A DNA stretch of 64,000 nucleotides, from the IMG/VR virus record IMGVR_UViG_3300028394_000042, one strand, 5' to 3'. The notes under the pieces are model-generated. The model was not told the origin of the DNA. It was given only the letters and a program-made list of their open reading frames with translations, and did no database searches. The position numbers were made by a program, and so were the translations under genes. This DNA is from a virus. Positions 20,385 to 62,572 of this stretch are shown here, one piece after another (position 1 is the stretch's first letter; each line of letters begins with the position of its first letter).

Positions 20385-20477
20385 GCGTCAGCCTCCGTGC
20401 CTATTTGTGTGCGGTTTTGCGGTCACTGGGTAGTATACCTCACTACCCATTTCAAAAACAAAACCAGTAAAGTGAAT

Positions 20478-21188
20478 TTAACAAGACAGTAAATCTGATG
20501 CCTTGAAGACAATCCGCTTTAGGCGCGGTGCATACGGCTGGAGCGTCCAAGCTTCCTCGGCCATGTATGACACAGTGACAGGTACGGCATATCCCTGCAC
20601 AACTTCTTGAACCTCTCCTGCTCCGCCAACCTCAGACACAATGAACTTATGCAAGTCCATTTGGTCGCGAATCATTGGCGAAAAATGACCTAAAAACCTG
20701 ACAACTTCGGCGGCTAAGTATTCGTTCTCAGAGCCGGTGGCAGCTAAACAGAACAATGTGTGGCTGCCGGCCCAAAGCCCGGCATATGAGTTAGCTCCAG
20801 TATAATCATTCTGCCCACTCAAATCACCAATACCCTGCCGCTGCCATTGCCACGCATTTCGTTTAATCAACACGGCCGGGCGTTTATCAGCTGTATTTGG
20901 GGCCCAGCGCGTAATACTCTCAATCAGAATTCCGCCGGCGTTTAACCCGTTATCAACCGGTCGCCAAGCTCCAAGATCTTGTACCTGCCTACGCACACGC
21001 GGCTCGTCTACATTGTCGGCGTCTGCAAAGTGCGTAATAAGCAGTTGGCGCAGCAGTCCTGTCATTACGTGGGGGCGCATGCCGTAAGAACACAGCGAGC
21101 TAACTTTGCCTACGCGGTTCTCTGGTGTGCTGCCGGCCGGGAATTCAGCTTCTACTTCTGGCGGGTTTAACGGATCGCAGGTGCTCAC
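20478..21188 (-). CDS. Putative tail terminator/completion protein, 236 aa
   Basis: Between neck genes and sheath; KRPAVLIKR motif. Confidence 0.55.
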   Translation of the reverse strand: MSTCDPLNPPEVEAEFPAGSTPENRVGKVSSLCSYGMRPHVMTGLLRQLLITHFADADNVDEPRVRRQVQDLGAWRPVDNGLNAGGILIESITRWAPNTADKRPAVLIKRNAWQWQRQGIGDLSGQNDYTGANSYAGLWAGSHTLFCLAATGSENEYLAAEVVRFLGHFSPMIRDQMDLHKFIVSEVGGAGEVQEVVQGYAVPVTVSYMAEEAWTLQPYAPRLKRIVFKASDLLSC

Positions 21189-21202
21189 GGCAAAATCCTT
21201 TG

Positions 21203-22528
21203 TTAGATGTTCCAGAAGTCGTCGGCTGGGTCAACCGGGCCGCAGATCTTTTCTGTGCCGTCTGTAACCACATCGACGTTGTCTTCAGTAATGATAAGCT
21301 CTTCTTCGTTAACAACTGGCGTGGTCGGATCGTCGGAAGTGCCTTGCAGTTGTTGCTCGGACAGCCAGACGCAGCGGAGAGTAGCGCCGGCAGCCACAAC
21401 CGTAATAATTTGAATGTCCGGGCCGTAATCGCCGGGTTTTTCAAACAACAGCGCGTAATCACCCTCGTCTAGCTGCACAGCCGTTGTCCAGCGCCCGTTT
21501 GCGGATGTTGTTGTCACAGCGACGGCGTCAGTGCGGTCTGGCATAGCTGGATACGCTGCGTCATACACTGCTTTTGTGAACACATAGACATACGCGCCTT
21601 CGACAGCGCAATCTGTTCCGTCTGTGTAGGCTAAAGCGTCTGGCGCGCCGTAATTGTGGTCAACCGTGATCGCGCCACAGCCTTCAATAGGCAGCGCATA
21701 CACGGGCGGCGGGTTTGCTTCGCCGTACACTTCAAGTCCGTACGCCGTGTTGTTGAATGGAAGCAGGCCAAGCTGCACTGTATATACGAGCGGTACGTTA
21801 CGAATAGCGGCAGCTGTCTGGATGCTTTCAACCAGCCAGCGTTCGTCACTAGCGCCGTTGACCCAGATATCGTTTTTACTGAGCGCCGGAAAACCGATTA
21901 CGCGCGCTGTCACATACGGGTTATCGCGGGTTGTGCCCTTCGCCTGATCGTCAATCTGGGTCTGATTTGTCTGCGGTGACAAGTCCCAACACTGCATTTC
22001 AAGCGGCGGGTGATAGCCTGTCTCAAAGCCTGTACCTTTGCAAACAGCGCAGTTCGAGTCTGTGATCTCTTGCGTCAACGGGTCTAAACACCGCCGACAG
22101 GGCTGACCAAACCGCATGGGCTTTAAGAGGTACCCGGGAGTTGATACATACCGGTGGCGCAGTTTCTCTTTACGGATAACCTCGCGCGACAACACCCAGT
22201 CTTTTTCGGGTAGCTCGCCAAAACAGCTTGCGGCCTGAGATACGTACAGGTCGCTGGGCGTGGTTAGCGTAACGCGGTAGTGGCTAAGCAGCTCATAGCC
22301 AGATGTGTGCCAGCTTGGGTCATACGCTAAGTAGCTATCTGTGACCGGCGCGCCGATGTTTGTCCAGTCTACGGCGTCACGCAGGCCGGTTTTGCCGAGC
22401 TGTAACTGGAATACATACGGGCCGGGCTGGTTAAAAGTCGGCTCCAGCTGCCACCAAACGCGCGTGTTGCCGCGGACCATATGATCCACGGACACACGGC
22501 GGAACGGGAAAATACGAGATTGCGACAT
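21203..22528 (-). CDS. Putative neck/head-closure protein with zinc finger, 441 aa
   Basis: CxxC..CxxCxGTG..GY motif and position in the neck cluster. Confidence 0.6.
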   Translation of the reverse strand: MSQSRIFPFRRVSVDHMVRGNTRVWWQLEPTFNQPGPYVFQLQLGKTGLRDAVDWTNIGAPVTDSYLAYDPSWHTSGYELLSHYRVTLTTPSDLYVSQAASCFGELPEKDWVLSREVIRKEKLRHRYVSTPGYLLKPMRFGQPCRRCLDPLTQEITDSNCAVCKGTGFETGYHPPLEMQCWDLSPQTNQTQIDDQAKGTTRDNPYVTARVIGFPALSKNDIWVNGASDERWLVESIQTAAAIRNVPLVYTVQLGLLPFNNTAYGLEVYGEANPPPVYALPIEGCGAITVDHNYGAPDALAYTDGTDCAVEGAYVYVFTKAVYDAAYPAMPDRTDAVAVTTTSANGRWTTAVQLDEGDYALLFEKPGDYGPDIQIITVVAAGATLRCVWLSEQQLQGTSDDPTTPVVNEEELIITEDNVDVVTDGTEKICGPVDPADDFWNI

Positions 22529-22530
22529 GC

Positions 22531-23547
22531 TTAGTACCGAATACGAATAGCGTCTGTGTAAGAGCTGTACTTATACGTAGAAGACACCTCGCCGTAGCAG
22601 CTTTCCAGATTGATACTCGCCTTCGTAGCCCGCACCCAGTCCTTGTAGGCTTGCCAGCGCATTTGGGCAGCGCGCTCGTAGCTAGACTCTTTGTTCTGGT
22701 CAGCAACAGACAGGCCGGCAGCGCTGTAGTCGAGCTGATTGCGCCGAAACTGCTCTGCTACCATCATAAACAAATTGGCGCAGATACCTTCCAGCCAATG
22801 ATATCTAAACGGAAAATTCTGAGTGTTGTAAACAGCGTCCAGCGGCGGCGGGATCTCGTTCCAGTACATAACAGGCCGCGTAATCGCTAGCGCAATCTCT
22901 GCGTTGTCGAACATTAAGTTATCTAAAAGAAAACTCTCGGACGGCGCTGAATCGCGCAAGTGCAGGCGAATCTCGGCAATACTGGGCGGGCCGCCTTGCG
23001 TATTCAACGTGTCAAACGTGCTGCGCGCGATCACCACCGAAAACGTATTCGAAAAGATGACGCACGGCGTATTGGCTGCTTGGGCCGGAATACTGACCAG
23101 CGCAAACTCGCCGTAGTAGATACCCGGCACGCCGACCATATTGGCGGTAAGGTCGGCCTCTACTTGGCCAACTGTGCCATCGCCCACGCGCGCCAGCACC
23201 TCTACGGGCAACTGCCAGTTACCGAGCGACAGCTGCTCTTTCAGGCGCAGTACAACCTTGAAATTACCGGTCTGCTCGTTGTTTACGCCAGCGCCTAACC
23301 CGGCGCCAGTGAGATTTACGGGGTTGCCAGCTTTATCGTGCATCTGCCACGCAATTGTGCTGCACTGCCCCTGCGTAAGCTCCACAGAGCGCATACGGGT
23401 GTTGTTCGGCACCCCGTTCACGGTAGAGATAGCCGGGCTGATGATATTCTGGCCCACGCACGAAACAGGCGTCAGCTCCTGCCCGCTTGTGTCGTTAACA
23501 CAGCAGTTTACGATAGGATGCGGGGCAGGAGTGGCAATAACAGGCAT
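22531..23547 (-). CDS. Putative head-tail adaptor (neck) protein, 338 aa
   Basis: IRLHLRD, WNEIPP, RNQLDYSAAGLSV; first gene after the capsid operon. Confidence 0.6.
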   Translation of the reverse strand: MPVIATPAPHPIVNCCVNDTSGQELTPVSCVGQNIISPAISTVNGVPNNTRMRSVELTQGQCSTIAWQMHDKAGNPVNLTGAGLGAGVNNEQTGNFKVVLRLKEQLSLGNWQLPVEVLARVGDGTVGQVEADLTANMVGVPGIYYGEFALVSIPAQAANTPCVIFSNTFSVVIARSTFDTLNTQGGPPSIAEIRLHLRDSAPSESFLLDNLMFDNAEIALAITRPVMYWNEIPPPLDAVYNTQNFPFRYHWLEGICANLFMMVAEQFRRNQLDYSAAGLSVADQNKESSYERAAQMRWQAYKDWVRATKASINLESCYGEVSSTYKYSSYTDAIRIRY

Positions 23548-23582
23548 AGCGACTCTCCGTTAGTGAGTTAAGCATCCAATAT

Positions 23583-23619
23583 ACAAATAGAAAGGGCTGG
23601 CCAGTGACGGCCAGCCCTT
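23583..23619 (-). terminator. Intrinsic terminator ending the capsid operon
   Basis: AAGGGCTGGCC-GTCACT-GGCCAGCCCTT followed by TCTATTTG. Confidence 0.8.
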
Positions 23620-23644
23620 CCGTAAAACTGCTGTTGCAAAACGA

Positions 23645-24010
23645 CTAGGCGTCGTTGGCGTTGAGGTCGCCTTCGGTGTAGTCGCCACCACCCGTCCACG
23701 ACGGAGCCGTCGTGCCGAGTTCCTTGGTCGACGCCATACCGAGTTCGCGCGTCACGCCACCGGTCTCGCTGAGGATGTACACAGACGGAGACTTGATGAT
23801 CGACAAATCACCGTTCACCAGCGCGCTTTCGAGCGCCTTGAACTGCCGCTGTGCCCGCTTGCTGCCCAGCTTGGTGACAAGGTCACCCGGCTGAGTGTAC
23901 GTCTCGTTATTCGCGAGGCGCTTGCCGTGCGTGCCAAGAAATCCGAACACTCGCTCGGCTCCCGACACATTTTTCACGGTCGTATACAGATCTGTTGACG
24001 TATTAGGCAT
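23645..24010 (-). CDS. Small head-associated protein, 121 aa
   Basis: GGGAG RBS; lies within the capsid operon. Confidence 0.75.
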   Translation of the reverse strand: MPNTSTDLYTTVKNVSGAERVFGFLGTHGKRLANNETYTQPGDLVTKLGSKRAQRQFKALESALVNGDLSIIKSPSVYILSETGGVTRELGMASTKELGTTAPSWTGGGDYTEGDLNANDA

Positions 24011-24029
24011 GTGTTGTCACTCCCATTGT

Positions 24030-24416
24030 TCACTGTGTGTCTTGCAGAGCCGAAGCAGCAGCTGCCTGTAACATCAGAACAGCCTGCGCAATAGCCGGCT
24101 GCTCTGCTGCCACGTCGGCCGCACTGCTGAACGCAGCCGATTTCTCAACCGGACCACCGAGGCCCGCGGCGGCAAGCATCGCGTCGAGTTGCTGGTTATG
24201 AGCAACTAACGTCGATGCTTGCGCAGCCGCGACCTTTTCCTGCTCTGCCGTGTAGAGCACGTGGAGCTTAGAGGCAGCTGACCACATTTCTGCAGCTTCA
24301 CTCTCGGAACGCGGGTTAACCCCGTATGCCGAAAGCTTCTCGAAGAAATACGGCGCGGCAAGCTCCGTCACCATTGTGGCGTACGCCTGCTCAGCCGCCT
24401 CTTTGACATTGTCCAT
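24030..24416 (-). CDS. Small head-associated protein with K-x-A motifs, 128 aa
   Basis: AGGAG RBS; VKEAA, EKVAA, EKSAA. Confidence 0.75.
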   Translation of the reverse strand: MDNVKEAAEQAYATMVTELAAPYFFEKLSAYGVNPRSESEAAEMWSAASKLHVLYTAEQEKVAAAQASTLVAHNQQLDAMLAAAGLGGPVEKSAAFSSAADVAAEQPAIAQAVLMLQAAAASALQDTQ

Positions 24417-24453
24417 GACTAGTGCTCCTGTGGTTTTTAACCGTTACACGACA

Positions 24454-25380
24454 TTACTTGAAGTCAACGCGAGCCAGACCGTTGGTATGGCCGAAAGAGC
24501 CACCCTGTGTCTGGTAGGCAAAGTACTCAAGCATGAAAGCTTCACGACGGATGTACATCGTGGTGGGTTCCAGCTCGTAGTTCTTGCCGATGAACTTGGG
24601 CGAGGCAAACATAAAAAGACTATCGTCGGGGACCAAATCGCGCTTGATAGTCACAATCCAACGGCAGTTGAGGAAGTTAGTTTCCGCCCAGCCGTTCTTG
24701 ATGATGTCCTGCGAGAAGTCACCGCCCATTTCGTCGCGGCCGAACTTCAGCAGCTCCTTGATGGTGATGTTATTCACCAAGCAAGTTTCAACTTCGAAGT
24801 GGCTGGACGTACGGGGCATGACCTTCAGGGCGTCAACAAGGGTCTCACGAGTGATACCGCCGCTGATCTCCTCGTACTGCACATAGCCAGAAGCCGGATT
24901 AGTGGCGCCAGCGGTGGGCAGCACAGCATTGAAGGCAGCAATGAACTTGCTATCTTCTTCAGCCAGCATGTCCTTGATCATGTTGTCCGACAGAACCTGA
25001 CGAATGTCGATCACATACGTCCGCAGCTCGTCGACGTCCTTCACAGCGCGAGGCGACACGATCCGGTCAAACATGACGCGGTAACGTGGGCCACGGATGT
25101 AGAAGTTAATCGGGAGCGTCGCGAACGGAAGCGACACAGCCGCCGGGGAATCGGGTTCCTTGTCCACAACCTTAACGGGCTTGTCAGTATCAACCTGACG
25201 GTCAAGCTCGTCGTTGGTGATGGTCAGCGGGGGCATAATCCGCCGATAGAACCCGTCTTCACGCATCTTGGTGCGCGTGAAGTCGTTAACAGCGTCGATG
25301 GCCTGCTTCTGCATGCCGGGGGTATCGAGCTGCTCAAAAAGAGTCTCATTGAGCAATTGAACTTCTTGCTGAGTGGGCAT
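24454..25380 (-). CDS. Major capsid protein (HK97-like fold), about 308 aa
   Basis: RTKMREDGFYRRIMPP, DELRTY..DIRQVL, DMLAEEDSKF; follows scaffold and decoration genes. Start moved to ATG 25380 (GGAGG RBS). Confidence 0.85.
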   Translation of the reverse strand: MPTQQEVQLLNETLFEQLDTPGMQKQAIDAVNDFTRTKMREDGFYRRIMPPLTITNDELDRQVDTDKPVKVVDKEPDSPAAVSLPFATLPINFYIRGPRYRVMFDRIVSPRAVKDVDELRTYVIDIRQVLSDNMIKDMLAEEDSKFIAAFNAVLPTAGATNPASGYVQYEEISGGITRETLVDALKVMPRTSSHFEVETCLVNNITIKELLKFGRDEMGGDFSQDIIKNGWAETNFLNCRWIVTIKRDLVPDDSLFMFASPKFIGKNYELEPTTMYIRREAFMLEYFAYQTQGGSFGHTNGLARVDFK

Positions 25381-25384
25381 TATT

Positions 25385-25400
25385 GGAACCTCCATGTTCC
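25385..25400 (-). promoter_or_regulatory. ANGGAN hexaloop hairpin over the MCP Shine-Dalgarno (CsrA/RsmA-type site)
   Basis: GGAAC-AUGGAG-GUUCC; matches (A/U)CANGGANG(U/A). Confidence 0.6.
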
Positions 25401-25418
25401 TAGTAGTTAGTAAGTGGG

Positions 25419-25988
25419 TCAGTCGATAGTGGCGGCAGTGCCAGCTGGCAGGTACACGCTCCAGAACGAAAGAGTCAGCACGCCATTGTGATTACGGGAT
25501 GCGCCGCTGGAAACAACGCCGCAAACCGCGTTAACGTACTGGACAGCGCTCTGATTGGTCAGCACGCCGCCTGTGGAGAGAGCACTTGTCGACGTACCAG
25601 CTGTGAGCGTGTCGCCCGGGGCGTACGTCTGCGTGGAATCAAATTCCGTGGACGCAATTTCGTACCCGCCAGTTGCAACAAGACCAGACAACTTGCCCGA
25701 AGGCGAAATAGCCTGATGCATGAAGTTACCGCCAGCTGTGGTGCCGGGGTTGCTCACATCAGCATCGCCGGAGCCATTGAGCAAGAAGATGCCCATGTGC
25801 GCAGCGCTGACGCCCGGAAGGAACACTTCCTTGCCGCCAGACAACTCAAGATGCACAACGCGACCGCGCGGAACTGTGAACGAAACGCTGCTCGACAACT
25901 TTGCAGAGTAGTCGAGGCTAGCCATATCGAACCAGCCCTTCTTCACGTCAAGGCCGTGCTCGAACATCAAATCAGGGGCAGTAGCCAT
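25419..25988 (-). CDS. Putative capsid decoration/cement protein, 189 aa
   Basis: Small beta-rich protein directly upstream of the MCP; STEFD...YAPGDTLT. Confidence 0.65.
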   Translation of the reverse strand: MATAPDLMFEHGLDVKKGWFDMASLDYSAKLSSSVSFTVPRGRVVHLELSGGKEVFLPGVSAAHMGIFLLNGSGDADVSNPGTTAGGNFMHQAISPSGKLSGLVATGGYEIASTEFDSTQTYAPGDTLTAGTSTSALSTGGVLTNQSAVQYVNAVCGVVSSGASRNHNGVLTLSFWSVYLPAGTAATID

Positions 25989-25991
25989 CGT

Positions 25992-26007
25992 AAGACCTCC
26001 ATGTCTT
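25992..26007 (-). promoter_or_regulatory. ANGGAN hexaloop hairpin over the decoration-gene Shine-Dalgarno
   Basis: AAGAC-AUGGAG-GUCUU. Confidence 0.6.
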
Positions 26008-26047
26008 TGTCAATTTCGGGAATCATTCCCGGGGTAGTAAAACGAGC

Positions 26048-26479
26048 TCAAGAAGTGGGCGGATTGAGTCCAAGACCCGTGAAAAATTTCACGTCGGAAG
26101 CTTTGAGGCGACCGTCGCGGGCACCCACATACCCGCTCGTCAAACTAGAGTCAGGGTTGTAGCCGGCGGTCTTCGTGGTCGACCCAACCGGTGTGCCAAT
26201 ACGAGCCATCTCGGCAGCGTTTTTGTGCGACGCCAGCTTGATAACAAGCTCCATCGCGCGCACCGGATCACGAAGCGCTGCATCCAACGCTTCCTTCTGG
26301 TGTGCTTCGATGCGCTCGTTATCGAGGCAAGCTTTAACAGCAGCAGGAACTAAGCTAGCCAGCTTTGCCTGCGTGTCGTCTTGCGCCTTGATAGCGGCCG
26401 CGGCCTTTGTCAGCGCTGCATCGGAATAACCGATGTAGTCGATGACTTTCTGGACAAGAGCGGTATTGCTTGTGGACAT
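26048..26479 (-). CDS. Head assembly/scaffold-associated protein, about 143 aa
   Basis: Start moved to ATG 26479 (GGAGG); helical; contains TKTAG. Confidence 0.7.
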   Translation of the reverse strand: MSTSNTALVQKVIDYIGYSDAALTKAAAAIKAQDDTQAKLASLVPAAVKACLDNERIEAHQKEALDAALRDPVRAMELVIKLASHKNAAEMARIGTPVGSTTKTAGYNPDSSLTSGYVGARDGRLKASDVKFFTGLGLNPPTS

Positions 26480-26495
26480 GAAAACCTCCAAGAAA

Positions 26496-27839
26496 TTAAC
26501 GACTGATCAGTTCGATGATGTGCTGCTTCATGCTGTCACGCAACTGGCGCGACCGCTTAGTGCGAGCTTCCTTAACCTGAAACTTACCGGAGCGCTTGAA
26601 GTCAACAACCATGCGCCCAATCGAGTCCAGAGCCGCCGCCATCTTGGCCTCAGCAGCTGCGGGATCGCCGCCCATAGCGGCAGCAGGGTCAGCCGGCGGC
26701 ATGCCGCCAGCTTCTGCGCCGGGAGCGCCGCCAGCCTCAGCGCCACCGTGTGACAGGGCCTGCAGCAGCGCTTCCGGTGGGATGCCAAGCTCTTCGAGGG
26801 CCATGGCCAACTCCTGAACAGCCTCTTCGTTACCGGGCTGTCCGCCACCCTCTTCGCCGCCCATCTCACCGCCCATTTCGCCACCCATCTCGCTGCCCAT
26901 TTCGCCGCCCGCCATCGGCGGAGCCTCGCTCAGGCCAGATTCCATGTCGCCGGGAGCGGAGTGATCTTCACCCTCTGCAGCGTCATCGGTCGGATCGGCA
27001 CCAGCGGCTTTGGACGACAAGAACCCGATAAACAGGTCAGCCATCTCGTCGGCCTCGCGCAGTGTGTTTGCGCACACCTCGCGAACAGACGCTTCAGCAG
27101 CTTCCTTATCCAGTCCAATCGCAGCCGCCAGTTCGTAGCCGGCCTTGAAGGCAGAAGCCTTAACACCAGCGTCAGAAGGCTCAAGGTCAACAGACTTGTC
27201 CTTGCCTTCGCCCGGCATCTTCACAGCCTTCGTGCCCGACTCTTCAGCCTTTTCCTTAGCCGAAGACTCAGACGACTCGTGAGCCGAGCTGCCCTCAATC
27301 TTCTTCTTCAAGAACTCAGGCATCTCAGACTGTTTGGTCAAGTTAGCTGTACCGAAGTTAATCAGGTTCGCAAGGATCTCGTTACCAAGCGCGCCGCAAT
27401 TAGCGCGGGCTTCCTTGAACGACACAGCGCTGTACTTCTCGCCGCTGTCAGCCTTAGCTGGGTGAGTAGTGCCCGGATCGTCCTTGGTGCCCTTGTAATC
27501 CTTTTCAGCTGCGGGGTCTTCACCAGTGGCAGCGGTGTTCGTGTTGATATTCAGCTGGACGTCATCCTGCCGGCCTTCTTGCGAAAGGGGAGCAGTGCTG
27601 TCAACACCGAGCGGGCCCTGCTGCTTCTTCATGTCCGCTTCGTACTCAGCGCTGCGCGCGCCCTCTGAGGCGACCTGCACGTTGTTGTCAACATGGGCCG
27701 TGGGGTGCGTGGACGCACCGACGTAAGTACCCGGATCAGCTGGCGTAGGCGCTGCCGACTTTACAGCGCCTTCCGAGATCTCAGCAGCCAGCGCGTTGAG
27801 TTGTGCGAACAGTGAACGTGTCGTCCGTGCCATGGTCAT
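26496..27839 (-). CDS. Putative scaffold/core protein, acidic and low complexity, 447 aa
   Basis: Between protease and MCP; A/G/E-rich; GGEM repeats. Confidence 0.6.
   Translation of the reverse strand: MTMARTTRSLFAQLNALAAEISEGAVKSAAPTPADPGTYVGASTHPTAHVDNNVQVASEGARSAEYEADMKKQQGPLGVDSTAPLSQEGRQDDVQLNINTNTAATGEDPAAEKDYKGTKDDPGTTHPAKADSGEKYSAVSFKEARANCGALGNEILANLINFGTANLTKQSEMPEFLKKKIEGSSAHESSESSAKEKAEESGTKAVKMPGEGKDKSVDLEPSDAGVKASAFKAGYELAAAIGLDKEAAEASVREVCANTLREADEMADLFIGFLSSKAAGADPTDDAAEGEDHSAPGDMESGLSEAPPMAGGEMGSEMGGEMGGEMGGEEGGGQPGNEEAVQELAMALEELGIPPEALLQALSHGGAEAGGAPGAEAGGMPPADPAAAMGGDPAAAEAKMAAALDSIGRMVVDFKRSGKFQVKEARTKRSRQLRDSMKQHIIELISR
26853..26909 (-). repeat. 12-bp coding tandem repeat (G-G/S-E-M, 4-5 copies)
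   Basis: GGEMGSEMGGEMGGEMGGE in the translation. Confidence 0.8.
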
Positions 27840-27877
27840 CTCCTTTGGGGTCTAATCGTTAAACGATTAGCTTCCGT

Positions 27878-34446: not shown

Positions 34447-34516
34447 GGCCACCTCCATGCGGCACTGCAGACAATCGGACACTGCTAATAATTTACAGTG
34501 TTTCAGCCCCTATATC

Positions 34517-38532: not shown

Positions 38533-38554
38533 AGAAACCTCCATGTTGAGCACG

Positions 38555-45496: not shown

Positions 45497-46525
45497 CTAT
45501 ATGTTGCCGAGAGCGCCATAACTTTTCAACTTCTTTGGCGGCCAGCCGTTAACACCAGACATCGCGATCATATACCGATTTTTGATATCCGCCCACCGTA
45601 CCCAGAATGCGCCAACAGGAATATCAATAATAGTTCCGAAGATACGGCGCCCGCCGGAGTTCCAGTCGCCCCAGCTCTGCTGCAGCAACACAAGCGGCCC
45701 GCCGTAGAGTTTAATGATTTCTGGCCTGTCGTCTACAGCAAGATACGCCATCGCGTGAGCCCAGCCAGCACGAGTGCGGGCCGACACGCCATTAATGTCG
45801 CGCTCGTCCGAAAAACTTTCACCGCCGCATGAACTTACGCAGTAGCCGTTCGCGAGTAAGTCGCGCAGCACTTCGTACGACTCGACTTCGGTGATTGTCT
45901 GAACAAGGTGGTCTTTGCCGACAGCCAACCAAGTTTTAGGGGGCTCTTTTGAGCCGTAAATACCAGCGTTCTTCGAGCTGTACGACGTAAAATCGACGTT
46001 GATTTCAGGGTATTCTTTGCGCAGCCACAAGCCGCTCTCGTTCAGCACTACAGCTGCAGCTTCAGGACACGACCAGCCGTCGCCGCCGTGCCGGCGCCAA
46101 TTGTAGATCGCCTCTGTAGACAACACGCCGGAAAGAATACCGGCGGGGCTAACTTCAGGCGCGCTTTCAAGTTTACCCGTCTTCGGGTCGGGTACGCCGC
46201 TGGTAATGTCGCAGCACATGGTGCCAAGACACGCATTACGGGTTGACCAGCTTACACAGTCGCCGCGACCTTGGGCTCCACCCGGGAGGCAACCCGGGTA
46301 GAGCTTCAAGATCTCAAGAACTGGCAGGCTCAACTTGCCCTTGCCAGTTTCTTCCAAGTTATATGCCGAGCACGCCATTGCGCCGTCGGGAATACCGCCG
46401 GCCGCACTGATCTGATCGCGCAGTTTTTCAGCGGCTTCTGGGTTGCTACGCGCCCCCACAAAGCCCTTTTCGTACGCTGCCTTAACGTCGTAAACGCTTG
46501 TAAAAAACTGCTCTTTGTCGTCCAT
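45497..46525 (-). CDS. Papain-like (C1-type) cysteine peptidase, 342 aa
   Basis: QGRGDCVSW (Gln, Cys), WAHAM (His), QQSWG (where papain has NSWG). Confidence 0.75.
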   Translation of the reverse strand: MDDKEQFFTSVYDVKAAYEKGFVGARSNPEAAEKLRDQISAAGGIPDGAMACSAYNLEETGKGKLSLPVLEILKLYPGCLPGGAQGRGDCVSWSTRNACLGTMCCDITSGVPDPKTGKLESAPEVSPAGILSGVLSTEAIYNWRRHGGDGWSCPEAAAVVLNESGLWLRKEYPEINVDFTSYSSKNAGIYGSKEPPKTWLAVGKDHLVQTITEVESYEVLRDLLANGYCVSSCGGESFSDERDINGVSARTRAGWAHAMAYLAVDDRPEIIKLYGGPLVLLQQSWGDWNSGGRRIFGTIIDIPVGAFWVRWADIKNRYMIAMSGVNGWPPKKLKSYGALGNI

Positions 46526-46546
46526 GACATGTCTCCGGCAAAAAGA

Positions 46547-48692: not shown

Positions 48693-48716
48693 GTGTGCGT
48701 CCTTGCATAGCGTGGG

Positions 48717-53786: not shown

Positions 53787-53803
53787 ACAACCGTCCTTGT
53801 TGC

Positions 53804-54929: not shown

Positions 54930-54930
54930 G

Positions 54931-55266: not shown

Positions 55267-55274
55267 AGATGTGC

Positions 55275-55895
55275 TTAGCCTTTGCGCCAGCCCTTGTGTT
55301 GGTGTCGTGTGCCCCGTGTGACGCACCGCATGTTTGCCCTATTTAAGCCGTGTTTCTTGCAGAACTGCCTCATGTTTACGGCTGTTATGCGCTCACCGGC
55401 TGGCGAAATGAGCTTACACACGCTGGCTGTCTGTGCTGCGCGGGTCTTGCCGCCCTTTTTACCGCCAGCAGAAGAATGTGCGCTGTGCTCTGCTGTTGTC
55501 ATGCGGCTAAACCCAGAGCCGCCCGCAAGAGACCGCGCATATGCCTGCTTGCGCTGCGCTTCTGTCAGGATAAACCGCCCGCGCACGTTGCGGTTCAGGC
55601 ACAGCTTCAGGCCGTCGTTCATCATGGCGTCTTTGATAAGCGTTTCTTCAGCGCGCCACAAAGCCTGCGCGTTTCGCTTATTCGCCAGCACGTATCGGCA
55701 CTTTAACACGACTTTCAACGCATTTCGCTGGTACTCAGGGTGGCCGGGCGTGTTGTACTTCTTGAACGTAACCATAGAGCCAAAATACGCATGGTCATCA
55801 ACCGGGCTGCGCGCCGTAATGCGCGAGCCGTAGTACACACGATGCGCTATGTCAGGGTAGACAATCGCGTACGTGTAATGCCACCGCTTTTGCAT
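55275..55895 (-). CDS. Free-standing GIY-YIG-like (Seg-type) homing endonuclease
   Basis: HYTYAI...YYGSR, YFGS, conserved E and LN, C-terminal FCKKHGL...HKGW DNA-binding module. Confidence 0.75.
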   Translation of the reverse strand: MQKRWHYTYAIVYPDIAHRVYYGSRITARSPVDDHAYFGSMVTFKKYNTPGHPEYQRNALKVVLKCRYVLANKRNAQALWRAEETLIKDAMMNDGLKLCLNRNVRGRFILTEAQRKQAYARSLAGGSGFSRMTTAEHSAHSSAGGKKGGKTRAAQTASVCKLISPAGERITAVNMRQFCKKHGLNRANMRCVTRGTRHQHKGWRKG

Positions 55896-56002
55896 ACACT
55901 GACTCCATTCAGTGTGGCTCGCAGTGTAACCAGATCCATCTAGTTACTGCCGACTAGTTTACTTTGTCGGCACCCGGTTGACCTAGTTACAGCAAACAGC
56001 GG

Positions 56003-56650
56003 TCATTTCATTGTGACGGTCAGCGGCGCTTTGTATTGCTTCAGGTAGCGCTTGTATACCACAGGGTTTGGGTTCTCTACCGTAGGTATGCTGCTGGCTT
56101 CTTCTGGCGTAGCGATGACTTGGTGTACAGCTTCGCCAGAAAGTGTGTCGCACCAGACTACGTTTTCAAGCTTAAGCCCGTCAGCGTCGTGGATAACAGC
56201 CACGTCTGGGATCTCGCTCGCCCTGCCTGCGTCAAAGATCATTTCTCGTCTCCTGTGTTTTTCTGGCGCGTCCAACTCAAACATTTTGATAACTAAGTCC
56301 AAAGCTACTGCACACATGACTTCCAGCGCTGTATCTGACTGGCACTCTGGGCACGTACGCTTGTGCTCTTCCAGCTGCTTTTCAAGAGCGGCAATATCCG
56401 CGTCTAGTCTAGCTTTTTTATCTTGCTCAAAAGCGGCAAGCACGTGATCTGGAAGCCGGCCGATCAATTTTGTTTCTCGATCTTTATCGTCCATGGTTTC
56501 TTCAGCTTTCATTCTGGCCACACGGGAGGAGATATGCGCGTCTAGTCTAGCTCTAGCGAGTGCGCTGGCGTCCGGCGCCATAGCCTTCCTAAAAGCAACG
56601 AGGGTCTCGCGGGTGAAACCACCGGCAAACTCATCTTGGTTGTCTGGCAT
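56003..56650 (-). CDS. Hypothetical protein, 215 aa
   Basis: AGGAG RBS; HxxxCxxC. Confidence 0.6.
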   Translation of the reverse strand: MPDNQDEFAGGFTRETLVAFRKAMAPDASALARARLDAHISSRVARMKAEETMDDKDRETKLIGRLPDHVLAAFEQDKKARLDADIAALEKQLEEHKRTCPECQSDTALEVMCAVALDLVIKMFELDAPEKHRRREMIFDAGRASEIPDVAVIHDADGLKLENVVWCDTLSGEAVHQVIATPEEASSIPTVENPNPVVYKRYLKQYKAPLTVTMK

Positions 56651-56659
56651 CTGTGTCTC

Positions 56660-56908
56660 CTACAAAAAATCCGCTTCAAGTAACTTACGCCGCGCAACGG
56701 GGTCACTTGGAAGCGTCGCCATGGCTAGTGCAGTGGCATCTATTTTACCTTGCGCATATTGCGCAAAAGCAACACGCACGGAACTAGTATAAAAAAAGTT
56801 TACAGGGCCGCTTTCTTTTACGAGTTCACCAAGCCGTTGAGTGCCACTTCTGGCACTTAACTCGTCTTTTTTGTCGCAAGGTGCCAACTCTGTCACTTTA
56901 TCGGCCAT
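56660..56908 (-). CDS. Hypothetical protein, about 82 aa
   Basis: GAGG RBS before MADKV. Confidence 0.5.
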   Translation of the reverse strand: MADKVTELAPCDKKDELSARSGTQRLGELVKESGPVNFFYTSSVRVAFAQYAQGKIDATALAMATLPSDPVARRKLLEADFL

Positions 56909-56922
56909 AGTTTCCTCAGCTT

Positions 56923-57573
56923 TCATTCTGGCCACTCAGGGGGAGATATACGCGCTTCTTCCTCAGTAAATAACTGCAGCACCAAAATCTTTTGTTGAAT
57001 TTCGGGCGGTAGTTTGTTGAGGTATGTGTCAACAAGATCTATACGCGCCCCTTTAGCCAGATGCGTAAACATGTTGGAGACAATGCGCACCCGAATCGAC
57101 GCGCTATTACGGTGATATATCGACAATGCTGTGAAAGTCATTGGGCTAAGTGCGTCTTGAACAAGCCGTAATTCCTTGGTTTGGCCATGTAAGTCATCGA
57201 CGTACGGCGGCGGGGCTACGGTGTGCGCCGCTGCAACAGGCGTCACGCGGCGGCGGTAGATGATAGACGGATACTTATGGCCCCCATGCCTGTGCGTCGG
57301 CAGCCTCAACCACTCACGTTGGTTGTCTCGATAAGCCGATTCGTCACCCTCCTGCAAAACATCTTCCGGCCCAAGCTCGCGCCAACCCTCGCCAACGTCT
57401 GGCTTATCGCCGTCGATTTCCACGGGTTTATCGAGCTCTTTGATCGCCGCGTCTGCAATGGCGACTGCCCGGGCGGCTACGTCAGCGACAAAAGCGGCAT
57501 CGAGAGTGTTGCCAGTATACGACGCACACAAGCCATTTAACGCTGCCTTAACAAACTCTTCGCGCGGACTCAT
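56923..57573 (-). CDS. Mosaic hypothetical protein with BolA-like C-terminal segment
   Basis: REEF..AAL.GL N-terminus; GEGWREL module; IRVRIVS..F.....RIDLV...L. Confidence 0.6.
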   Translation of the reverse strand: MSPREEFVKAALNGLCASYTGNTLDAAFVADVAARAVAIADAAIKELDKPVEIDGDKPDVGEGWRELGPEDVLQEGDESAYRDNQREWLRLPTHRHGGHKYPSIIYRRRVTPVAAAHTVAPPPYVDDLHGQTKELRLVQDALSPMTFTALSIYHRNSASIRVRIVSNMFTHLAKGARIDLVDTYLNKLPPEIQQKILVLQLFTEEEARISPPEWPE

Positions 57574-57632
57574 GTAATGTTCCTTTGGTTACCTACTACA
57601 CAAAACATTGCACAAACTTGAATCTTCTGTAG

Positions 57633-57660
57633 ACCATTTCGCTGACGTCAACGAAATGGT
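57633..57660. repeat. 28-bp near-perfect palindrome
   Basis: ACCATTTCGCTGAC|GTCAACGAAATGGT, one mismatched pair. Confidence 0.85.
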
Positions 57661-57691
57661 GCAGCGGCGGCGGAGAGAGGATACCGGTTTA

Positions 57692-58075
57692 TCAATTCGG
57701 TCCTCGCTCCGCCGCAAGCGCCGCTTTTAGATCTTGTATTGAGTAGTACACAGGCTTACCGGCTTGAATAAAATACCGCACTTCTGAGTCAGCCCCAGAA
57801 GATTCCGCCTGTTGATACGAGTATTCGTTAAACAACGCCACCAGACGCAGGCATATATCACAACGCGACACGATTTCCCTGTCGTACGCCAGCCAGTGCT
57901 CGTATGGCCGCGGAAACGACAAATGCTGAAAATGCGACCACAACGGTGCAATCGGTACAACCCCAAGAGACAGCAGCTCATCGAATACTGCCAATTGAAA
58001 CCGCACGTTAATTGCTGTGTCGCCCTTTGTGTACGGGCTGGCAATGTAGACCCGCGGTTTTTCATTTACCGGCAT
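57692..58075 (-). CDS. Nucleoside 2-deoxyribosyltransferase-like (DUF4406/DUF1937-type) protein
   Basis: RVYIASPYT, W..YD....RCD, ESSGADSE, GKPVY. Start moved to ATG 58075. Confidence 0.75.
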   Translation of the reverse strand: MPVNEKPRVYIASPYTKGDTAINVRFQLAVFDELLSLGVVPIAPLWSHFQHLSFPRPYEHWLAYDREIVSRCDICLRLVALFNEYSYQQAESSGADSEVRYFIQAGKPVYYSIQDLKAALAAERGPN

Positions 58076-58214
58076 ATTTAATCCTTTCATGTGTGGTGCA
58101 GCGGCGGCGGGGTGCTTAGGGAGCCAGCCATGCACAGCCAACCCACACCCCGCCGCAAGCGCCGCTACTAGCTTCTCTGCCACCGAGTTCCCCAGCAGCA
58201 AAGAGAACTTTCAT

Positions 58215-58718
58215 CTATGTTGTTGCCGACTTTACGCGGCGGCGGTGAAAACCTCCAACAGCGCCGACGCACTTGCCAATAGTGCGGCGTGTCACTAAAA
58301 CCCAAAGGCCGGCGTCGCTACTCTCGTACTCGTCGCCAGCCGCGATTACCTCGTTAGCTTTCAGCAGCCGCCACTCTTCGCGCACAACGAGCTGCGCCGG
58401 TTTGTCGGGTTCGGCCGCCGTATGCCGCGCAACAATGTCGTTAAGCGTAACAGCCCACGAAGGTGTGTTGTCGCAAACAGCTGACATAGCAGCATCTGCT
58501 ATAGCGTCCAGCTCGTGCTGCGTCAGCAACTCGCGCGGAGTCAAACCGGTGTCCATCTGCACGTATACGTCGCCATCACGTACGGACAACGTGCAGTCTT
58601 GCTCTGCATAGCGCCTGATAACTTCTTCCAGCGTCCGCACTTTTTGCAGGGCAGCGTGTAGTTCGTGCCCCATGCCGACAAGCTCTTTGCAGCACCGGCC
58701 CAAAGGATCATCTGTCAT
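58215..58718 (-). CDS. Hypothetical protein, 167 aa
   Basis: YAEQDCTLSV; WRLL..E.I..GDE module also present in 56923-57573. Confidence 0.65.
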   Translation of the reverse strand: MTDDPLGRCCKELVGMGHELHAALQKVRTLEEVIRRYAEQDCTLSVRDGDVYVQMDTGLTPRELLTQHELDAIADAAMSAVCDNTPSWAVTLNDIVARHTAAEPDKPAQLVVREEWRLLKANEVIAAGDEYESSDAGLWVLVTRRTIGKCVGAVGGFHRRRVKSATT

Positions 58719-58771
58719 TACTCACCTACAATAAGTTTTTTTGCATGAAAACTTGACAACTGTTCCGCAGT

Positions 58772-59056
58772 TTATTTGTTGTCTTTAATTTTTCGCCTGC
58801 GTACCCAGTTTTTTGGTAAAGATCCGTTAGGGTAATCAAGCGGCACATAAAACCCGCCAAAAGTCCCGTCAATGTCTATTTGCCGTTTGACTAGGTTGAA
58901 CGTGCCGGCATTCCATGAGCCGTCAATCATTAGGTCTGCAATCGGCGGGCAATACACCTCGACTGGCTCCCCGTGACGATACCGCCAAGCCGGGTCAAAT
59001 TCAAGGGTAGGTACCGCAATCACGGTGACCAAGAAAGCTCTGCGGGTAAAGCTCAT
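58772..59056 (-). CDS. Paralogue B with twin-arginine-like N-terminus
   Basis: MSFTRRAFL; clearly similar to 59053-59355. Confidence 0.7.
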   Translation of the reverse strand: MSFTRRAFLVTVIAVPTLEFDPAWRYRHGEPVEVYCPPIADLMIDGSWNAGTFNLVKRQIDIDGTFGGFYVPLDYPNGSLPKNWVRRRKIKDNK

Positions 59057-59355
59057 TTTTCGGGACTCTTCTTGCGCACCCAATTTCTCGGCAACGGCAT
59101 ATCAGCGTAATTAAGTGGTATGTGAAAACTGCCGCCGGGCTTAAAAACGTCTATTTGCCGTTTGCGTAAGTTAAACATACCGTCGCGCCATTTGCCGTTT
59201 TTGCCCTCAAGCCAGCCGCTGCCGCTTAGCAAATCAGCTACGTCTGGAATCCACACCTGCACCGGATCGCCGTCACAATGCGGCCACGCTTGCTCAAATT
59301 CAAGCGCCGGGACTGTGATTACAGTTGCCAAGAAGGCTCTGCGGGTGACGCTCAT
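59053..59355 (-). CDS. Paralogue A with twin-arginine-like N-terminus
   Basis: MSVTRRAFL; shares FNL.KRQID and LP.NWVR with paralogue B. Confidence 0.7.
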   Translation of the reverse strand: MSVTRRAFLATVITVPALEFEQAWPHCDGDPVQVWIPDVADLLSGSGWLEGKNGKWRDGMFNLRKRQIDVFKPGGSFHIPLNYADMPLPRNWVRKKSPEK

Positions 59356-59475
59356 TTATGTCGCGTGGTTTAGCCGCGGCTCCACCGGCCAGCAAAGAAC
59401 GCCAGCACAGACATTGCAAGGGCAACCCACGGCCACTGCATAGAAAACGACAGGTACATAAACACAGCTGCTGCG

Positions 59476-59823
59476 CTATTCATCTGGCATTTCCTTTGTT
59501 GTCATTGGTTCCGCGCTACACAAATACTCGGTATGTATTTCTGGGCTATGCAAATACTCGACGCGTAGCGGTGCCGGATGTTGGCGGCGTTCAACTTTAA
59601 CTTTTCCTTTGTCAGATTGCCCGAAAAACGATACTGCGTAGCTCCAACAAAGCCGGCCATCTGCGTTAAAAACGATATGATCAGCTTCGCCTGTATCAGT
59701 GTTGCACCACCGCACGTAATGCAACTCCACACCGTTAGCGTCAAATACCTGACAACTTGCGGTACGTAAAACAGTGTTGCTACCTTCAGTGTCTAAGATC
59801 AGCTGTTTAATGTCTAAAATCAT
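59476..59823 (-). CDS. Hypothetical protein, about 115 aa
   Basis: VFDANG...WCNTDTGE...PAPLRV; AGGAG RBS. Confidence 0.65.
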   Translation of the reverse strand: MILDIKQLILDTEGSNTVLRTASCQVFDANGVELHYVRWCNTDTGEADHIVFNADGRLCWSYAVSFFGQSDKGKVKVERRQHPAPLRVEYLHSPEIHTEYLCSAEPMTTKEMPDE

Positions 59824-60026
59824 CTGTCTTCTCCTTTGATTACCCACTCGAACTTAGGCTCGCCGTCTTCGTCACTGACCCACTTCGCCGCGCCGACCTT
59901 TATAGCCTCGCGACGCACGTCTCGTTCCCCGATGTCCACACCTCTAAGCACGCTGAGAATAGAAATTGCGGACAGCATTACCAGCATAAAAACAAGGACT
60001 ACAGCAATTTCTTTCGTAGATATCAT
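59820..60026 (-). CDS. Small single-transmembrane protein, paralogue B
   Basis: DVRREAIKVGAAKWVSDEDGEPKFEW. Confidence 0.7.
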   Translation of the reverse strand: MISTKEIAVVLVFMLVMLSAISILSVLRGVDIGERDVRREAIKVGAAKWVSDEDGEPKFEWVIKGEDR

Positions 60027-60229
60027 TTGCCTTCTCCTCTGATTATCCACTCAAACTTAGACGCACCATTTTCGTCACTGACCCACCGCGCCACGCCGGT
60101 CTTTATGGCCTCTTGGCGCACGTCTTGCCTACCGCTCACTACGCCTTTAAAAAAGCCCATCATTACACCGACTATAAGCAGTGCCGCTGTAAGTAGAAGA
60201 ACAACTCGCGCCTCGTTATCAGTCGCCAT
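60023..60229 (-). CDS. Small single-transmembrane protein, paralogue A
   Basis: DVRQEAIKTGVARWVSDENGASKFEW. Confidence 0.7.
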   Translation of the reverse strand: MATDNEARVVLLLTAALLIVGVMMGFFKGVVSGRQDVRQEAIKTGVARWVSDENGASKFEWIIRGEGK

Positions 60230-60642
60230 TATTTGTCTTTCTCTACGTGATCGTAATCAAATAGCTTTTTCATGATGCCCTTTAGCGTCAGTCGCTCTAA
60301 AATTGAGTTTAGCGCTGCCGCTACGTCATCGCCTTTATATAGTGCTGGCACTGCGGGATTGTTGTTGAAGCCGTTGCAGCTGCCACACGCATTCGCAGCT
60401 TCTTTTAAGGCCCAGATTTCGACGTCGGTGAGCTGTAATTGCATTGCCTTTTCCCGCAGCCGCTGAATTTCAGCGTCGGCCACAGCAAATCTTGTATTCG
60501 GGGCTGCGCGTAGCTGCGTAATTTCAACTGCTGCCTCAAGCAATAGATCATTAGTGTACTCTTGCGTATAGGCCGACAGGCTATCTTCAGCAGCTGCCGT
60601 AACAGCTCTGGCATTTAAGCGCGGCACGATGTCATAATTCAT
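60229..60642 (-). CDS. Hypothetical protein, 137 aa
   Basis: DIVPRL...EAAVEITQLR; overlaps neighbours. Confidence 0.65.
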   Translation of the reverse strand: MNYDIVPRLNARAVTAAAEDSLSAYTQEYTNDLLLEAAVEITQLRAAPNTRFAVADAEIQRLREKAMQLQLTDVEIWALKEAANACGSCNGFNNNPAVPALYKGDDVAAALNSILERLTLKGIMKKLFDYDHVEKDK

Positions 60643-60968
60643 TTGCCAGCCTCCATCGCCTTCAACAGCCGTACAGCCTTGAGCAGATCAATGGTGACAG
60701 CGCCACCGTTTTCGTCTCGCACCTGAATGCGCGATGTGCCGTCTTTGTCAGCAATGATTGCCCAGCCGTAGATGCCGTCTTGCGTGCGGGCACCAACGTA
60801 TGCATCGCCTCGTTCACAAGCCAACGTGACGTGTTGCATTTTGTCGGGGCCGCAAAAGAACGCAAACTTGTCGTCGTTATGCGTGCTGAATACAAACTGA
60901 GTCGGCAACGCAGCTGCAAGGCACAGGGCGCAAAGAGCAGAAAGAACACAAGCAAAAGCAGTCCGCAT
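60639..60968 (-). CDS. Exported hypothetical protein
   Basis: AGGAG RBS before the signal-peptide-like MRTAFACVLS. Confidence 0.6.
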   Translation of the reverse strand: MRTAFACVLSALCALCLAAALPTQFVFSTHNDDKFAFFCGPDKMQHVTLACERGDAYVGARTQDGIYGWAIIADKDGTSRIQVRDENGGAVTIDLLKAVRLLKAMEAGK

Positions 60969-61022
60969 GATAAAACTCCTAGGTAAATGAAACAAAACTC
61001 AACTCAGGTTCACCGCGTTAAC

Positions 61023-61289
61023 TTATTCGCTGATATTCGCTTCTGCCTGCCGCTTTGAGCACGGGCAGTCTGGGTGATGCACGAAGTGGTGTATCGACTC
61101 TACCCACAAATGGTTATCGTGCGTGACGGTCTGCATGCCCCACGCCGCTGACGGACTAACGGCAGTTGTTTCACTATTAAGGGGCTTGGGTATTCGCATC
61201 ATCAGCTGGAACACCAGCGCAATCAGCACTAAGCTTACGCCTCCAGCCACCATACCGTCAACCAGCGTAAAACCACTACGTTGATTCAT
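61023..61289 (-). CDS. Small protein with prepilin-type N-terminal motif
   Basis: RSG|FTLVD plus hydrophobic helix; C-terminal HHPDCPC. Confidence 0.65.
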   Translation of the reverse strand: MNQRSGFTLVDGMVAGGVSLVLIALVFQLMMRIPKPLNSETTAVSPSAAWGMQTVTHDNHLWVESIHHFVHHPDCPCSKRQAEANISE

Positions 61290-61296
61290 GTTGCAT

Positions 61297-61674
61297 TTAC
61301 AACAACCTTTCTATGATTGCCTTTGTGCCGGCATTGAACTTATGCAAAATATCAATTTCTTTGTGGGCTGCCGCAAGCCGCAGCCGGGCAATCTCCGCGT
61401 CGCCCCGTAGCCGCTTGATCTCTTCTACCATGGCCGCTGACAACTCGTCGCAGCGTACACTGCCGGCTCTCTCTACCACCAGCCCAAGATCCGTGAGCTG
61501 CTTCTCTATGGTTGTGTGCTCGTCGCAGGAGCTTGAGATTAGCTCGTCGTTTAGCTGGTTTATGCGGTCAATTTCATCAAGCACAAGTTGGTCTTCATCG
61601 CTCCAGCTAATCCGGCTGCTGAACTGGCTGTAAACACGCGTACGAAATTTTGCAATGATGTCACTGTCAAACAT
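61297..61674 (-). CDS. Hypothetical coiled-coil protein
   Basis: Start moved to ATG 61674, inside the junction repeat. Confidence 0.6.
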   Translation of the reverse strand: MFDSDIIAKFRTRVYSQFSSRISWSDEDQLVLDEIDRINQLNDELISSSCDEHTTIEKQLTDLGLVVERAGSVRCDELSAAMVEEIKRLRGDAEIARLRLAAAHKEIDILHKFNAGTKAIIERLL

Positions 61675-61957
61675 CTTTGTCCCCTTCTTTCTGCTTGGAT
61701 AAGCCGAGAAAACTTTGGCGGGAGCGGTAGTAGTACTTAAAGTCATCGTCTGCAACTCGCGCGTTGAGTTCGTTTAGCTGCGTCTGCAAATACCCAACAA
61801 CAGCCAGCAATTCAGAGGCTGTCATCCGCTCAACAGGCTCACCAAAAAACATCAAGTCTCTGGCCGCAAGCCAGCAGTCAGCGACAAGTTCGGCCCGCCG
61901 GCTTTGCTCTTTTGAGTCAAACTCTGCCATGTTCATTGGTACAACACGCTTAGGCAT
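61667..61957 (-). CDS. Hypothetical protein, 96 aa
   Basis: Flanked by junction repeats. Confidence 0.6.
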   Translation of the reverse strand: MPKRVVPMNMAEFDSKEQSRRAELVADCWLAARDLMFFGEPVERMTASELLAVVGYLQTQLNELNARVADDDFKYYYRSRQSFLGLSKQKEGDKDV

Positions 61958-62349
61958 CTTTGTCTCCCTCTTTCTGTTTGTTCAATATCTTTTCCATGAT
62001 TGTTTTAACGCGTCACTTAATCCTCAAATTCAAATTGGTCAGCGTCAAACACAATGATTGAATGCCCAAAAATATTGTGCCCGCCGCGCATCGTTGGCGC
62101 ACCCGGCTTAAAAGCAGCGATTGCAATGTCTAGCGCGACTTCAAAATTACGCGGCAAATACACGTACTTTGCCCCGCCGCAGTGAGACTCGCCCCACCTT
62201 AACGGCTCAGATATACGCTGCATATAGGCAGCAAGACAAGCTTGATACACACTCCAAGCCAACTCTTCTACAGTAGAAAAATCATCAGTGGTTACAGGTT
62301 CAGGCATCTTTGTCTCCCTCTTTCTGCTTGTCTAAGATCTTCTTCATGA
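61672..62349 (-). repeat. Dispersed gene-junction repeat, 3 copies (62302-62349, 61952-61999, 61672-61697)
   Basis: Core CAA(G/A)CAGAAAGA(G/A)GG(A/G)GACAAAGATG containing the RBS and the next start codon. Confidence 0.85.
62017..62307 (-). CDS. Hypothetical protein, 96 aa
   Basis: Flanked by junction repeats. Confidence 0.6.
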   Translation of the reverse strand: MPEPVTTDDFSTVEELAWSVYQACLAAYMQRISEPLRWGESHCGGAKYVYLPRNFEVALDIAIAAFKPGAPTMRGGHNIFGHSIIVFDADQFEFED

Positions 62350-62551
62350 CTTCAGGCGCTACTGGGATCTGCATCGCGTGCCTGTAGATCGGCCGGATCT
62401 TGTTCCCCTCGTACACCTCGTCGATGTCATACCGGTGCAGGCTGTGGCCGTCGATCATCATGATGGTCTCTTGGTCGGGCGGCACGGCAAGCACAATGCC
62501 GTCGAAGGGCCCGCCGTATAGCTCGTGCTTGACTAGTTTTTGTTTAGCCAT
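62300..62551 (-). CDS. Hypothetical protein, 83 aa
   Basis: LYGGPFDG motif; GGAGG RBS. Confidence 0.7.
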   Translation of the reverse strand: MAKQKLVKHELYGGPFDGIVLAVPPDQETIMMIDGHSLHRYDIDEVYEGNKIRPIYRHAMQIPVAPEVMKKILDKQKEGDKDA

Positions 62552-62572
62552 AAATAGCGCCTCCGTGCGCTC

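Follow-up and report, generated by a model that had tools for sequence, protein, structure and literature searches.

Phage translational repressors that bind hairpins at ribosome-binding sites (RBSs) are known from MS2 and Qbeta, whose coat protein acts on the replicase operator, and from T4 in the form of RegA. In bacteria the proteins of the CsrA/RsmA family recognize the published consensus CANGGAYG in a hexaloop, with AUGGA or ANGGA in apical loops near start codons. Genes for CsrA have already been catalogued on mobile elements, where their role has been assumed to be manipulation of the host, and csrA is found in about 1.2% of phage genomes (PMC7366521). Knockdown of csrA in phage PTXU04 results in smaller plaques, and a role in the phage life cycle has previously been called untested (PMC11879866). 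In full-text literature searches we found no report of phage CsrA targets on phage mRNAs or within the element that carries the gene. Here we describe hairpins over the RBSs of the major capsid gene and several other genes in a 64,000-nucleotide stretch (the window) of the virus record IMGVR_UViG_3300028394_000042, together with a csrA encoded in the same record. That the hairpins are a class of real, conserved RNA structures on ribosome-binding sites can be stated with near certainty. Judging from sequence comparison, they probably constitute a regulon in which a phage-encoded CsrA acts on mRNAs of the phage itself, those of virion as well as accessory genes.

The source is a 120,049-bp IMG/VR record judged 59% complete, of which the window covers bases 46759-110758. 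It holds about 148 genes, nearly all on the minus strand, and is related to jumbo phages with genomes of about 170-235 kb. Four single-base differences separate the window from the stored record (28732, 41401, 50998 and 58670), and all of them fall outside the hairpins. Genes were called with a self-trained codon model, and starts were picked by Shine-Dalgarno (SD) sequence and start-codon type. ANGGAN hexamers located 6-18 nt 5' of a called start were counted as RBS-located, which applied to 42 of the 267 on the coding strand. Folding was done with ViennaRNA, and MFE denotes the minimum-energy fold. Loci of relatives were gathered by a capsid-protein search (65 loci, 56-99% identity), and whole genomes were compared between six phages with csrA (this record and five relatives, one of them partial) and three without it. 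In the following, G000 is the source record, G004, G006, G007, G009-G012 and G016 are related phage genomes, and L numbers are loci of the record or of its relatives.

In this genome the paired hexamers are concentrated at gene starts. At least three flanking pairs were found for 11 of the 42 RBS-located ANGGAN hexamers and for 13 of the 225 elsewhere on the coding strand, and with stems of at least 5 bp the counts were 6/42 and 2/225. For the more general NN-GGA-N hexaloop, stems of at least 4 bp enclose 7 of 83 RBS GGAs against 15 of 995 elsewhere (Fisher p 8e-4), and stems of at least 5 bp 6 of 83 against 5 of 995 (Fisher p 6e-5). Among 25 loop geometries tried, start-site enrichment was seen only for NN-GGA-N and for its form with the closing pair opened, and permuting the 5' flanks among RBSs gave p = 2e-4 to 4e-4. 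The whole 120-kb record has 11 coding-strand ANGGAN hairpins of at least 4 bp, of which 10 lie at or beside a start codon: seven contain the SD, one is 31 nt upstream of another and two have the AUG of the loop as the called start, and the last is deep within a gene. Single hairpins have only modest folding energies (-5 to -12 kcal/mol, z about -1 to -2); the class is significant through its position, geometry and covariation and not through stability.

The same structures are maintained by changing sequences in related phages. The 65 loci contain 241 ANGGAN hairpins with stems of at least 4 bp on the coding strand versus 41 on the other. At the capsid RBS, 87% of cells are paired in 39 distinct relatives, against 23-63% in slid registers, and the double-change cells number 33 compared to 8.5 ± 2.5 in shuffled data (0/500). 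The capsid site keeps C-A-Y-GGAG-G, and its stems vary (GGAAC/GUUCC, AGAAC/GUUCU, AAGAC/GUCUU, GCAC/GUGC, CGAUC/GAUCG, UUC/GAA). The 189-aa gene directly upstream behaves similarly, with 77% of cells paired in 36 distinct relatives and 30 double-change cells versus 11.5 shuffled (0/500). Unrelated stem sequences are found at the orthologous sheath, capsid and upstream-gene sites of G004, G006, G007, G010 and G011. The sequence-only reading of this DNA, which had proposed CsrA/RsmA-type hairpins as a switch on morphogenesis and lysis genes, had named pairing at starts against shuffled flanks and covariation in relatives as checks. Geometry-specific enrichment and flank permutation reject chance for the class, and covariation is present at the capsid and upstream-gene sites. 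All the sequences that it quoted are also found on the minus strand where it had placed them.

The other sites differ in how well they are conserved. The sheath hairpin, which had been listed beside the capsid one, is only partly borne out: many relatives, G004, G007, G010 and G011 among them, have stems of 5-6 bp there that differ from each other in sequence, but in the sublineage of this genome the stem is 3 bp, and here it is not the MFE fold. In one sublineage (L012, L023, L025 and L057) the sheath RBS hairpin is lost, AG now following the loop, with the capsid and upstream-gene hairpins kept; such phages are natural variants with which the role of the hairpin could be probed. At the 793-aa gene an identical hairpin is found in G004 and four loci, all close relatives, and a different 6-bp stem in G011. 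Conservation does not extend to G004 for the sites of the 152-aa (53787), 342-aa (46516) and 110-aa (12871) genes. For the HNH-like and 83-aa genes, viral_contigs contains no relatives. Two other interpretations of the stems were rejected: no U-tract follows them as in a terminator, and a DNA operator does not fit arms that covary around a constant spacer.

A search of the record with PF02599 was positive for the phage csrA that the sequence-only reading had suggested looking for. The gene encodes a 73-aa homologue on the minus strand (G000:C1:29235-29456), 17 kb before the window. The protein scores 69.7-70 bits (curated cut-off 27) over positions 1-48 of the 53 in the profile, and in phmmer it matches solved CsrA/RsmE chains over residues 1-54 (E 3e-8 to 4e-7). 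In E. coli CsrA the RNA-binding residues are L2, L4 and R6 (region 1) and V40, R44 and I47 (region 2). Twelve CsrA copies of the clade show only 31-55% identity with the copy of this record and 33% mean column identity, and M1, L2, L4, R6, V30, P37, R44 and E46 are invariant across them. In the phage protein V40 is retained, V42 is replaced by I, I47 by L and R7 by E. Of 24 related records 17 carry the gene; among the 19 with a completeness of 90% or more, 16 do. In G007, G009 and G010 the RBS of csrA itself lies within an AAGGAG hexaloop hairpin, as would be expected under autoregulation.

The CsrA proteins of the clade also vary in architecture. G007 (L071:1165-1653, with L085) encodes a 163-aa protein with two tandem CsrA domains, a covalent 'dimer', and the hairpin on its own RBS has 5 bp. 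In the copies of G011 (L083:1471-1716) and G016 (L086:1447-1698) the first strand is followed by an inserted segment of about 20-25 aa, and G011, which has no other CsrA copy, favours AGGGAG loops. The C-terminal tails of the close-clade proteins (L001:1426-1644; L069, L075, L076 and L080) have in common a short G-L-E-R-(P/Q) motif, which bacterial CsrA lacks and which might serve to bind a partner. A divergent CsrA was considered in G012 from a weak tblastn match and rejected, the translation being an unrelated sequence.

The hairpins and csrA co-occur in the clade and are both absent from its sister clade. Among the RBS-located ANGGAN hexamers, 57 of 319 have a stem of 4 bp or more in the six genomes with csrA versus 4 of 259 in the three without it (Fisher 5.5e-12). 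The rate per genome is 14-23% in the former, whereas in the latter it equals the non-RBS background of 1-3%, with overlapping GC ranges (50-69% and 49-66%, respectively). In the genomes without csrA, the orthologous capsid, upstream-gene and sheath RBSs are plain strong SDs without stems. The loops also resemble the bacterial target. In the csrA-carrying genomes the first loop position is A in 57 of 68 RBS hairpins versus 262 of 757 (35%) RBS GGAs outside hairpins (p 1.8e-15). C-G closes 46 of the 68 loops, and in 57 of the 68 the GGA is found 10-14 nt upstream of the start. The second loop position is U or C in 38 of 68, which interrupts the pairing with the anti-SD, and the conserved loop A is therefore not explained by SD pairing. 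The few hairpins of the genomes without csrA have neither the loop-A nor the C-G bias, nor that at the second position. Of the SELEX consensus CANGGAYG the C, A, GGA and closing G are kept, but the Y is mostly replaced by G. The MFE folds at 25385, 25992, 34448, 62556 and 55896 place A-Y-GGA-G in the hexaloop.

Taken as translational operators of the CsrA/Rsm type, the hairpins would be read by the CsrA that the phage encodes. The operator would present an A-(U/C/A)-GGA-G hexaloop, usually closed by C-G, with the SD GGAGG lying partly in the loop and partly in the first stem pair, and a bound CsrA dimer would compete with the 30S subunit. This would lower the translation of the capsid and sheath genes, of the gene just upstream of the capsid gene, of the 793-aa gene and of a few accessory genes, and repression would last until the target mRNAs exceed the protein in number. 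We infer that CsrA binds, that its effect is repressive and not activating, and how the timing works; what points to a CsrA regulon on the phage's own mRNAs is a csrA with conserved RNA-binding residues, the match of the motif, the enrichment at starts, the covariation, the phyletic contrast, the two-site leader of the HNH-like gene and the hairpin at csrA's own RBS in three relatives. The switch through CsrA suggested by the sequence-only reading is consistent with the phage csrA, the motif, the covariation and the absence of hairpins in sisters without csrA, and its part concerning lysis genes is not supported (see below). Tentatively, this could be a self-contained viral Csr circuit, in which CsrA, under its own control in some lineages, blocks the RBSs of the capsid, sheath and other virion genes and is titrated by the accumulating late mRNAs, which thereby serve as their own sponge; we regard this as possible but not likely. 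If true, synthesis of the virion proteins would be governed by a threshold or by stoichiometry, independently of the Csr system of the host.

Several observations weigh against a phage CsrA regulon. Only about 5-6% of the genes bear a hairpin, and csrA's own RBS has none in this genome. Position 6 of the loop is G in 56 of 68 hairpins and not Y as in the SELEX consensus. Two hexaloop hairpins occur in the leader of the HNH-like gene only, the capsid, upstream-gene and 793-aa leaders being single-site. No sponge RNA was found by Rfam, where a tRNA gene (L168:4319-4391, record 24319-24391, minus strand) was the sole match in all 120 kb at the gathering threshold, or by a scan for clusters of GGA-loop hairpins; that scan returned many chance clusters, the densest of them, in G004, lying in a coding region, and these candidates were rejected. 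The genomes without csrA form one outgroup clade in the capsid tree and thus provide a single phylogenetic contrast, and at least seven other genes of unknown function in G004 follow the same in-group-only distribution. Two unrelated phages with csrA, phi297 and Vibrio 431E45.1, have no such hairpins (1/39 and 1/31); carriage of csrA alone therefore does not predict them, and the feature is clade-specific. The claimed 3-bp hairpins at 38536, 20390 and 48696 are not the MFE folds and are each individually within chance. At the last of these, the matrixin gene, the G004 orthologue has no GGA hairpin, which leaves the proposed gating of lysis genes unsupported.

Alternatively, the hairpins could work without any protein, tuning access to very strong GGAGG(U) SDs or shielding intercistronic virion RNA from nucleases, with the phage CsrA acting on host mRNAs. 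The stems are indeed short and weak (-5 to -6 kcal/mol), as would be fitting for tuning, and stand on genes that are probably strongly expressed, capsid and sheath for example; manipulation of the host is the role proposed in the literature for mobile-element CsrA, and the unrelated csrA phages named above lack such hairpins. However, this leaves the near-invariant loop A, the closing C-G and the exclusive hexaloop geometry unexplained, sister phages without csrA manage with plain strong SDs at similar GC, and the sites are located inside operons, in intergenic gaps of 20-40 nt and not at transcript 5' ends; we consider the explanation unlikely. Still less can be said for simple chance around ordinary SDs. 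GGAG is itself an SD, and three 3-bp sites, including that of the matrixin gene, behave like chance. For the class as a whole chance is contradicted by the geometry-specific enrichment, the flank permutation, replication in five other genomes and the covariation, and it holds only for weak individual sites; as a general account its probability is close to nil.

The identity of the reader can be questioned as well. The motif fits the bacterial CsrA consensus, and the sequence-only reading had allowed for a host protein; with host CsrA/RsmA as the sole reader, the phage mRNAs would follow the Csr status of the host or soak up its CsrA, and the phage copy would merely adjust the pool. All 16 in-group records at least 90% complete nevertheless keep their own csrA over a GC range of 50-69%, implying diverse hosts, and the sister phages without csrA are also without hairpins, which makes a host reader rather improbable. 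Another clade-specific RNA-binding protein or endonuclease could read the GGAG loop, either a RegB-like SD-cleaving enzyme or a protein specific to the in-group. The in-group-only genes of G004 offer candidates, and T4 RegB is reported to cleave GGAG in SD regions. Yet six of these genes that were tested have no Pfam domain, and of the encoded proteins only CsrA has a known specificity that agrees with the motif. No match to the RegB family was found either, a weak negative as that family matched no control genome. We find such a reader very improbable, and the phage-encoded CsrA remains our preferred reader.

The hairpins and their genes are collected in Table 1. Those at 12871 and 46516 are additional to the ones that the sequence-only reading had listed.

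Table 1. Hairpins of the window and genes named in the text (window coordinates).
Feature	Position (strand)	Gene or context	Fold or assignment
GGAAC-AUGGAG-GUUCC	25385..25400 (-)	contains SD of major capsid gene, start 25380	MFE fold, -6.3 kcal/mol
AAGAC-AUGGAG-GUCUU	25992..26007 (-)	SD of 189-aa gene directly upstream of capsid gene	MFE fold
GCCGC-AUGGAG-GUGGC	34448..34463 (-)	SD of 793-aa gene, GTG start 34446	MFE fold
AGCGC-ACGGAG-GCGCU	62556..62571 (-)	SD of 83-aa gene	MFE fold, z -1.9
7-bp stem, AUGGAG loop	55896..55915 (-)	adjoins start codon of 206-aa HNH-endonuclease-like gene	MFE fold
8-bp stem, AUGGAU loop	55926..55947 (-)	31 nt upstream of 55896 hairpin, same leader	MFE fold
GGC-ACGGAG-GCU, weak, 3 bp	20390..20401 (-)	SD of 963-aa sheath-like gene	not MFE fold here
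AAC-AUGGAG-GUU, 3 bp, marginal	38536..38547 (-)	247-aa gene	not MFE fold
UGC-AAGGAC-GCA, 3 bp, probably chance	48696..48707 (-)	matrixin/PG-binding gene	not MFE fold
5-6 bp stem, heptaloop AAGGACG	53787..53803 (-)	152-aa gene	MFE fold; geometry unlike main class
9-bp stem, AUGGAC loop	12871..12894 (-)	loop AUG is called start of 110-aa ORF	MFE fold, -15.5 kcal/mol, z -3.5, 0/200 shuffles
4-bp stem, AUGGAC loop, marginal	46516..46529 (-)	loop AUG is called start of 342-aa gene	weak fold, z +0.55
Major capsid protein gene, 308 aa	24454..25380 (-)		tblastn match to annotated major capsid protein of Salmonella phage Arash
Sheath-like gene, 963 aa	17493..20384 (-)		weak assignment, PHROG 279, E 9e-4
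HNH-like gene, 206 aa	55275-55960		PHROG 2081 HNH endonuclease, E 8e-9

The AUG in the loop of the capsid hairpin (25395) is in frame with the capsid gene, and calling the longest ORF adds five residues. Those relatives that have ACGGAG loops at this site show that the true start is 25380 and not 25395, and in this way the hairpin can be used in annotation to mark true start codons. Directly upstream of the capsid hairpin (window about 25401-25420) there are TAACTAA-type repeats, which recur at this position in many loci, with expansion in some relatives (e.g. L015:9940-9985); they provide stops in all frames or may be a promoter-like motif. The 189-aa gene, whose label of decoration protein in the sequence-only reading is provisional, does have a hairpin over its RBS. 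The 189-aa, 247-aa and 793-aa proteins had no or only marginal matches among PHROGs, Pfam, PDB sequences and phages (tblastn). The matrixin/PG-binding protein has the Pfam domains Peptidase_M10 and PG_binding_1.

The HNH-like gene has the only two-hairpin leader, and a terminator-like hairpin precedes the gene. This leader of 72 nt has a two-site architecture and a folding energy of -22.7 kcal/mol (z -2.8), and in the MFE fold of the hairpin at 55926 the GGA is in an apical tetraloop, the first A and last U of AUGGAU being paired. Given that it has no relatives in viral_contigs, the gene was probably acquired recently. The site at 53787-53803 had been noted as a related one; its sequence is present, but the loop is a heptaloop instead of a hexaloop and, as mentioned, the site is unconserved in G004.

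If the regulon is as proposed, this would be the first case found of a virus using the CsrA family of global regulators on its own capsid and tail mRNAs. It would also give a concrete, testable set of phage CsrA targets, a 73-aa protein and 20-nt RNAs, that can be used without the host. The closest described systems are the operators of bacterial CsrA/RsmA/RsmE (RsmE-hcnA, PDB 2JPP; CsrA-glgC; CLIP motif AUGGA in apical loops), which share the ANGGA hexaloop, usually closed by C-G, over an SD 10-14 nt before the start. As there, the phage genome that carries the hairpins also encodes a CsrA-family protein, with L2, L4, R6 and R44 conserved. The phage differs from these in that both regulator and targets are viral and the targets include virion structural genes, in the G that completes GGAGG at loop position 6, in having mostly one site per leader and in the lack of a detected sponge RNA. 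An element-borne csrA is shared with the rsmM-type phages F116 and phi297, with Vibrio phage csrA, with E. coli phage PTXU04 (gp28) and with plasmid pQBR103 (RsmQ), but the targets proposed there are host mRNAs, and phi297 and Vibrio phage 431E45.1 show no enrichment of RBS hairpins. T4 RegB is likewise reported to target the GGAG of ribosome-binding sites on phage mRNAs; it differs in that its targets are early mRNAs and no hexaloop hairpin is needed. The coat proteins of MS2 and Qbeta and RegA of T4 are alike in that a phage protein occludes the initiation region of phage genes, MS2 by reading a small hairpin. Their folds and RNA motifs are unrelated to those considered here, where a family of bacterial global regulators would act on a dozen or so dispersed operators.

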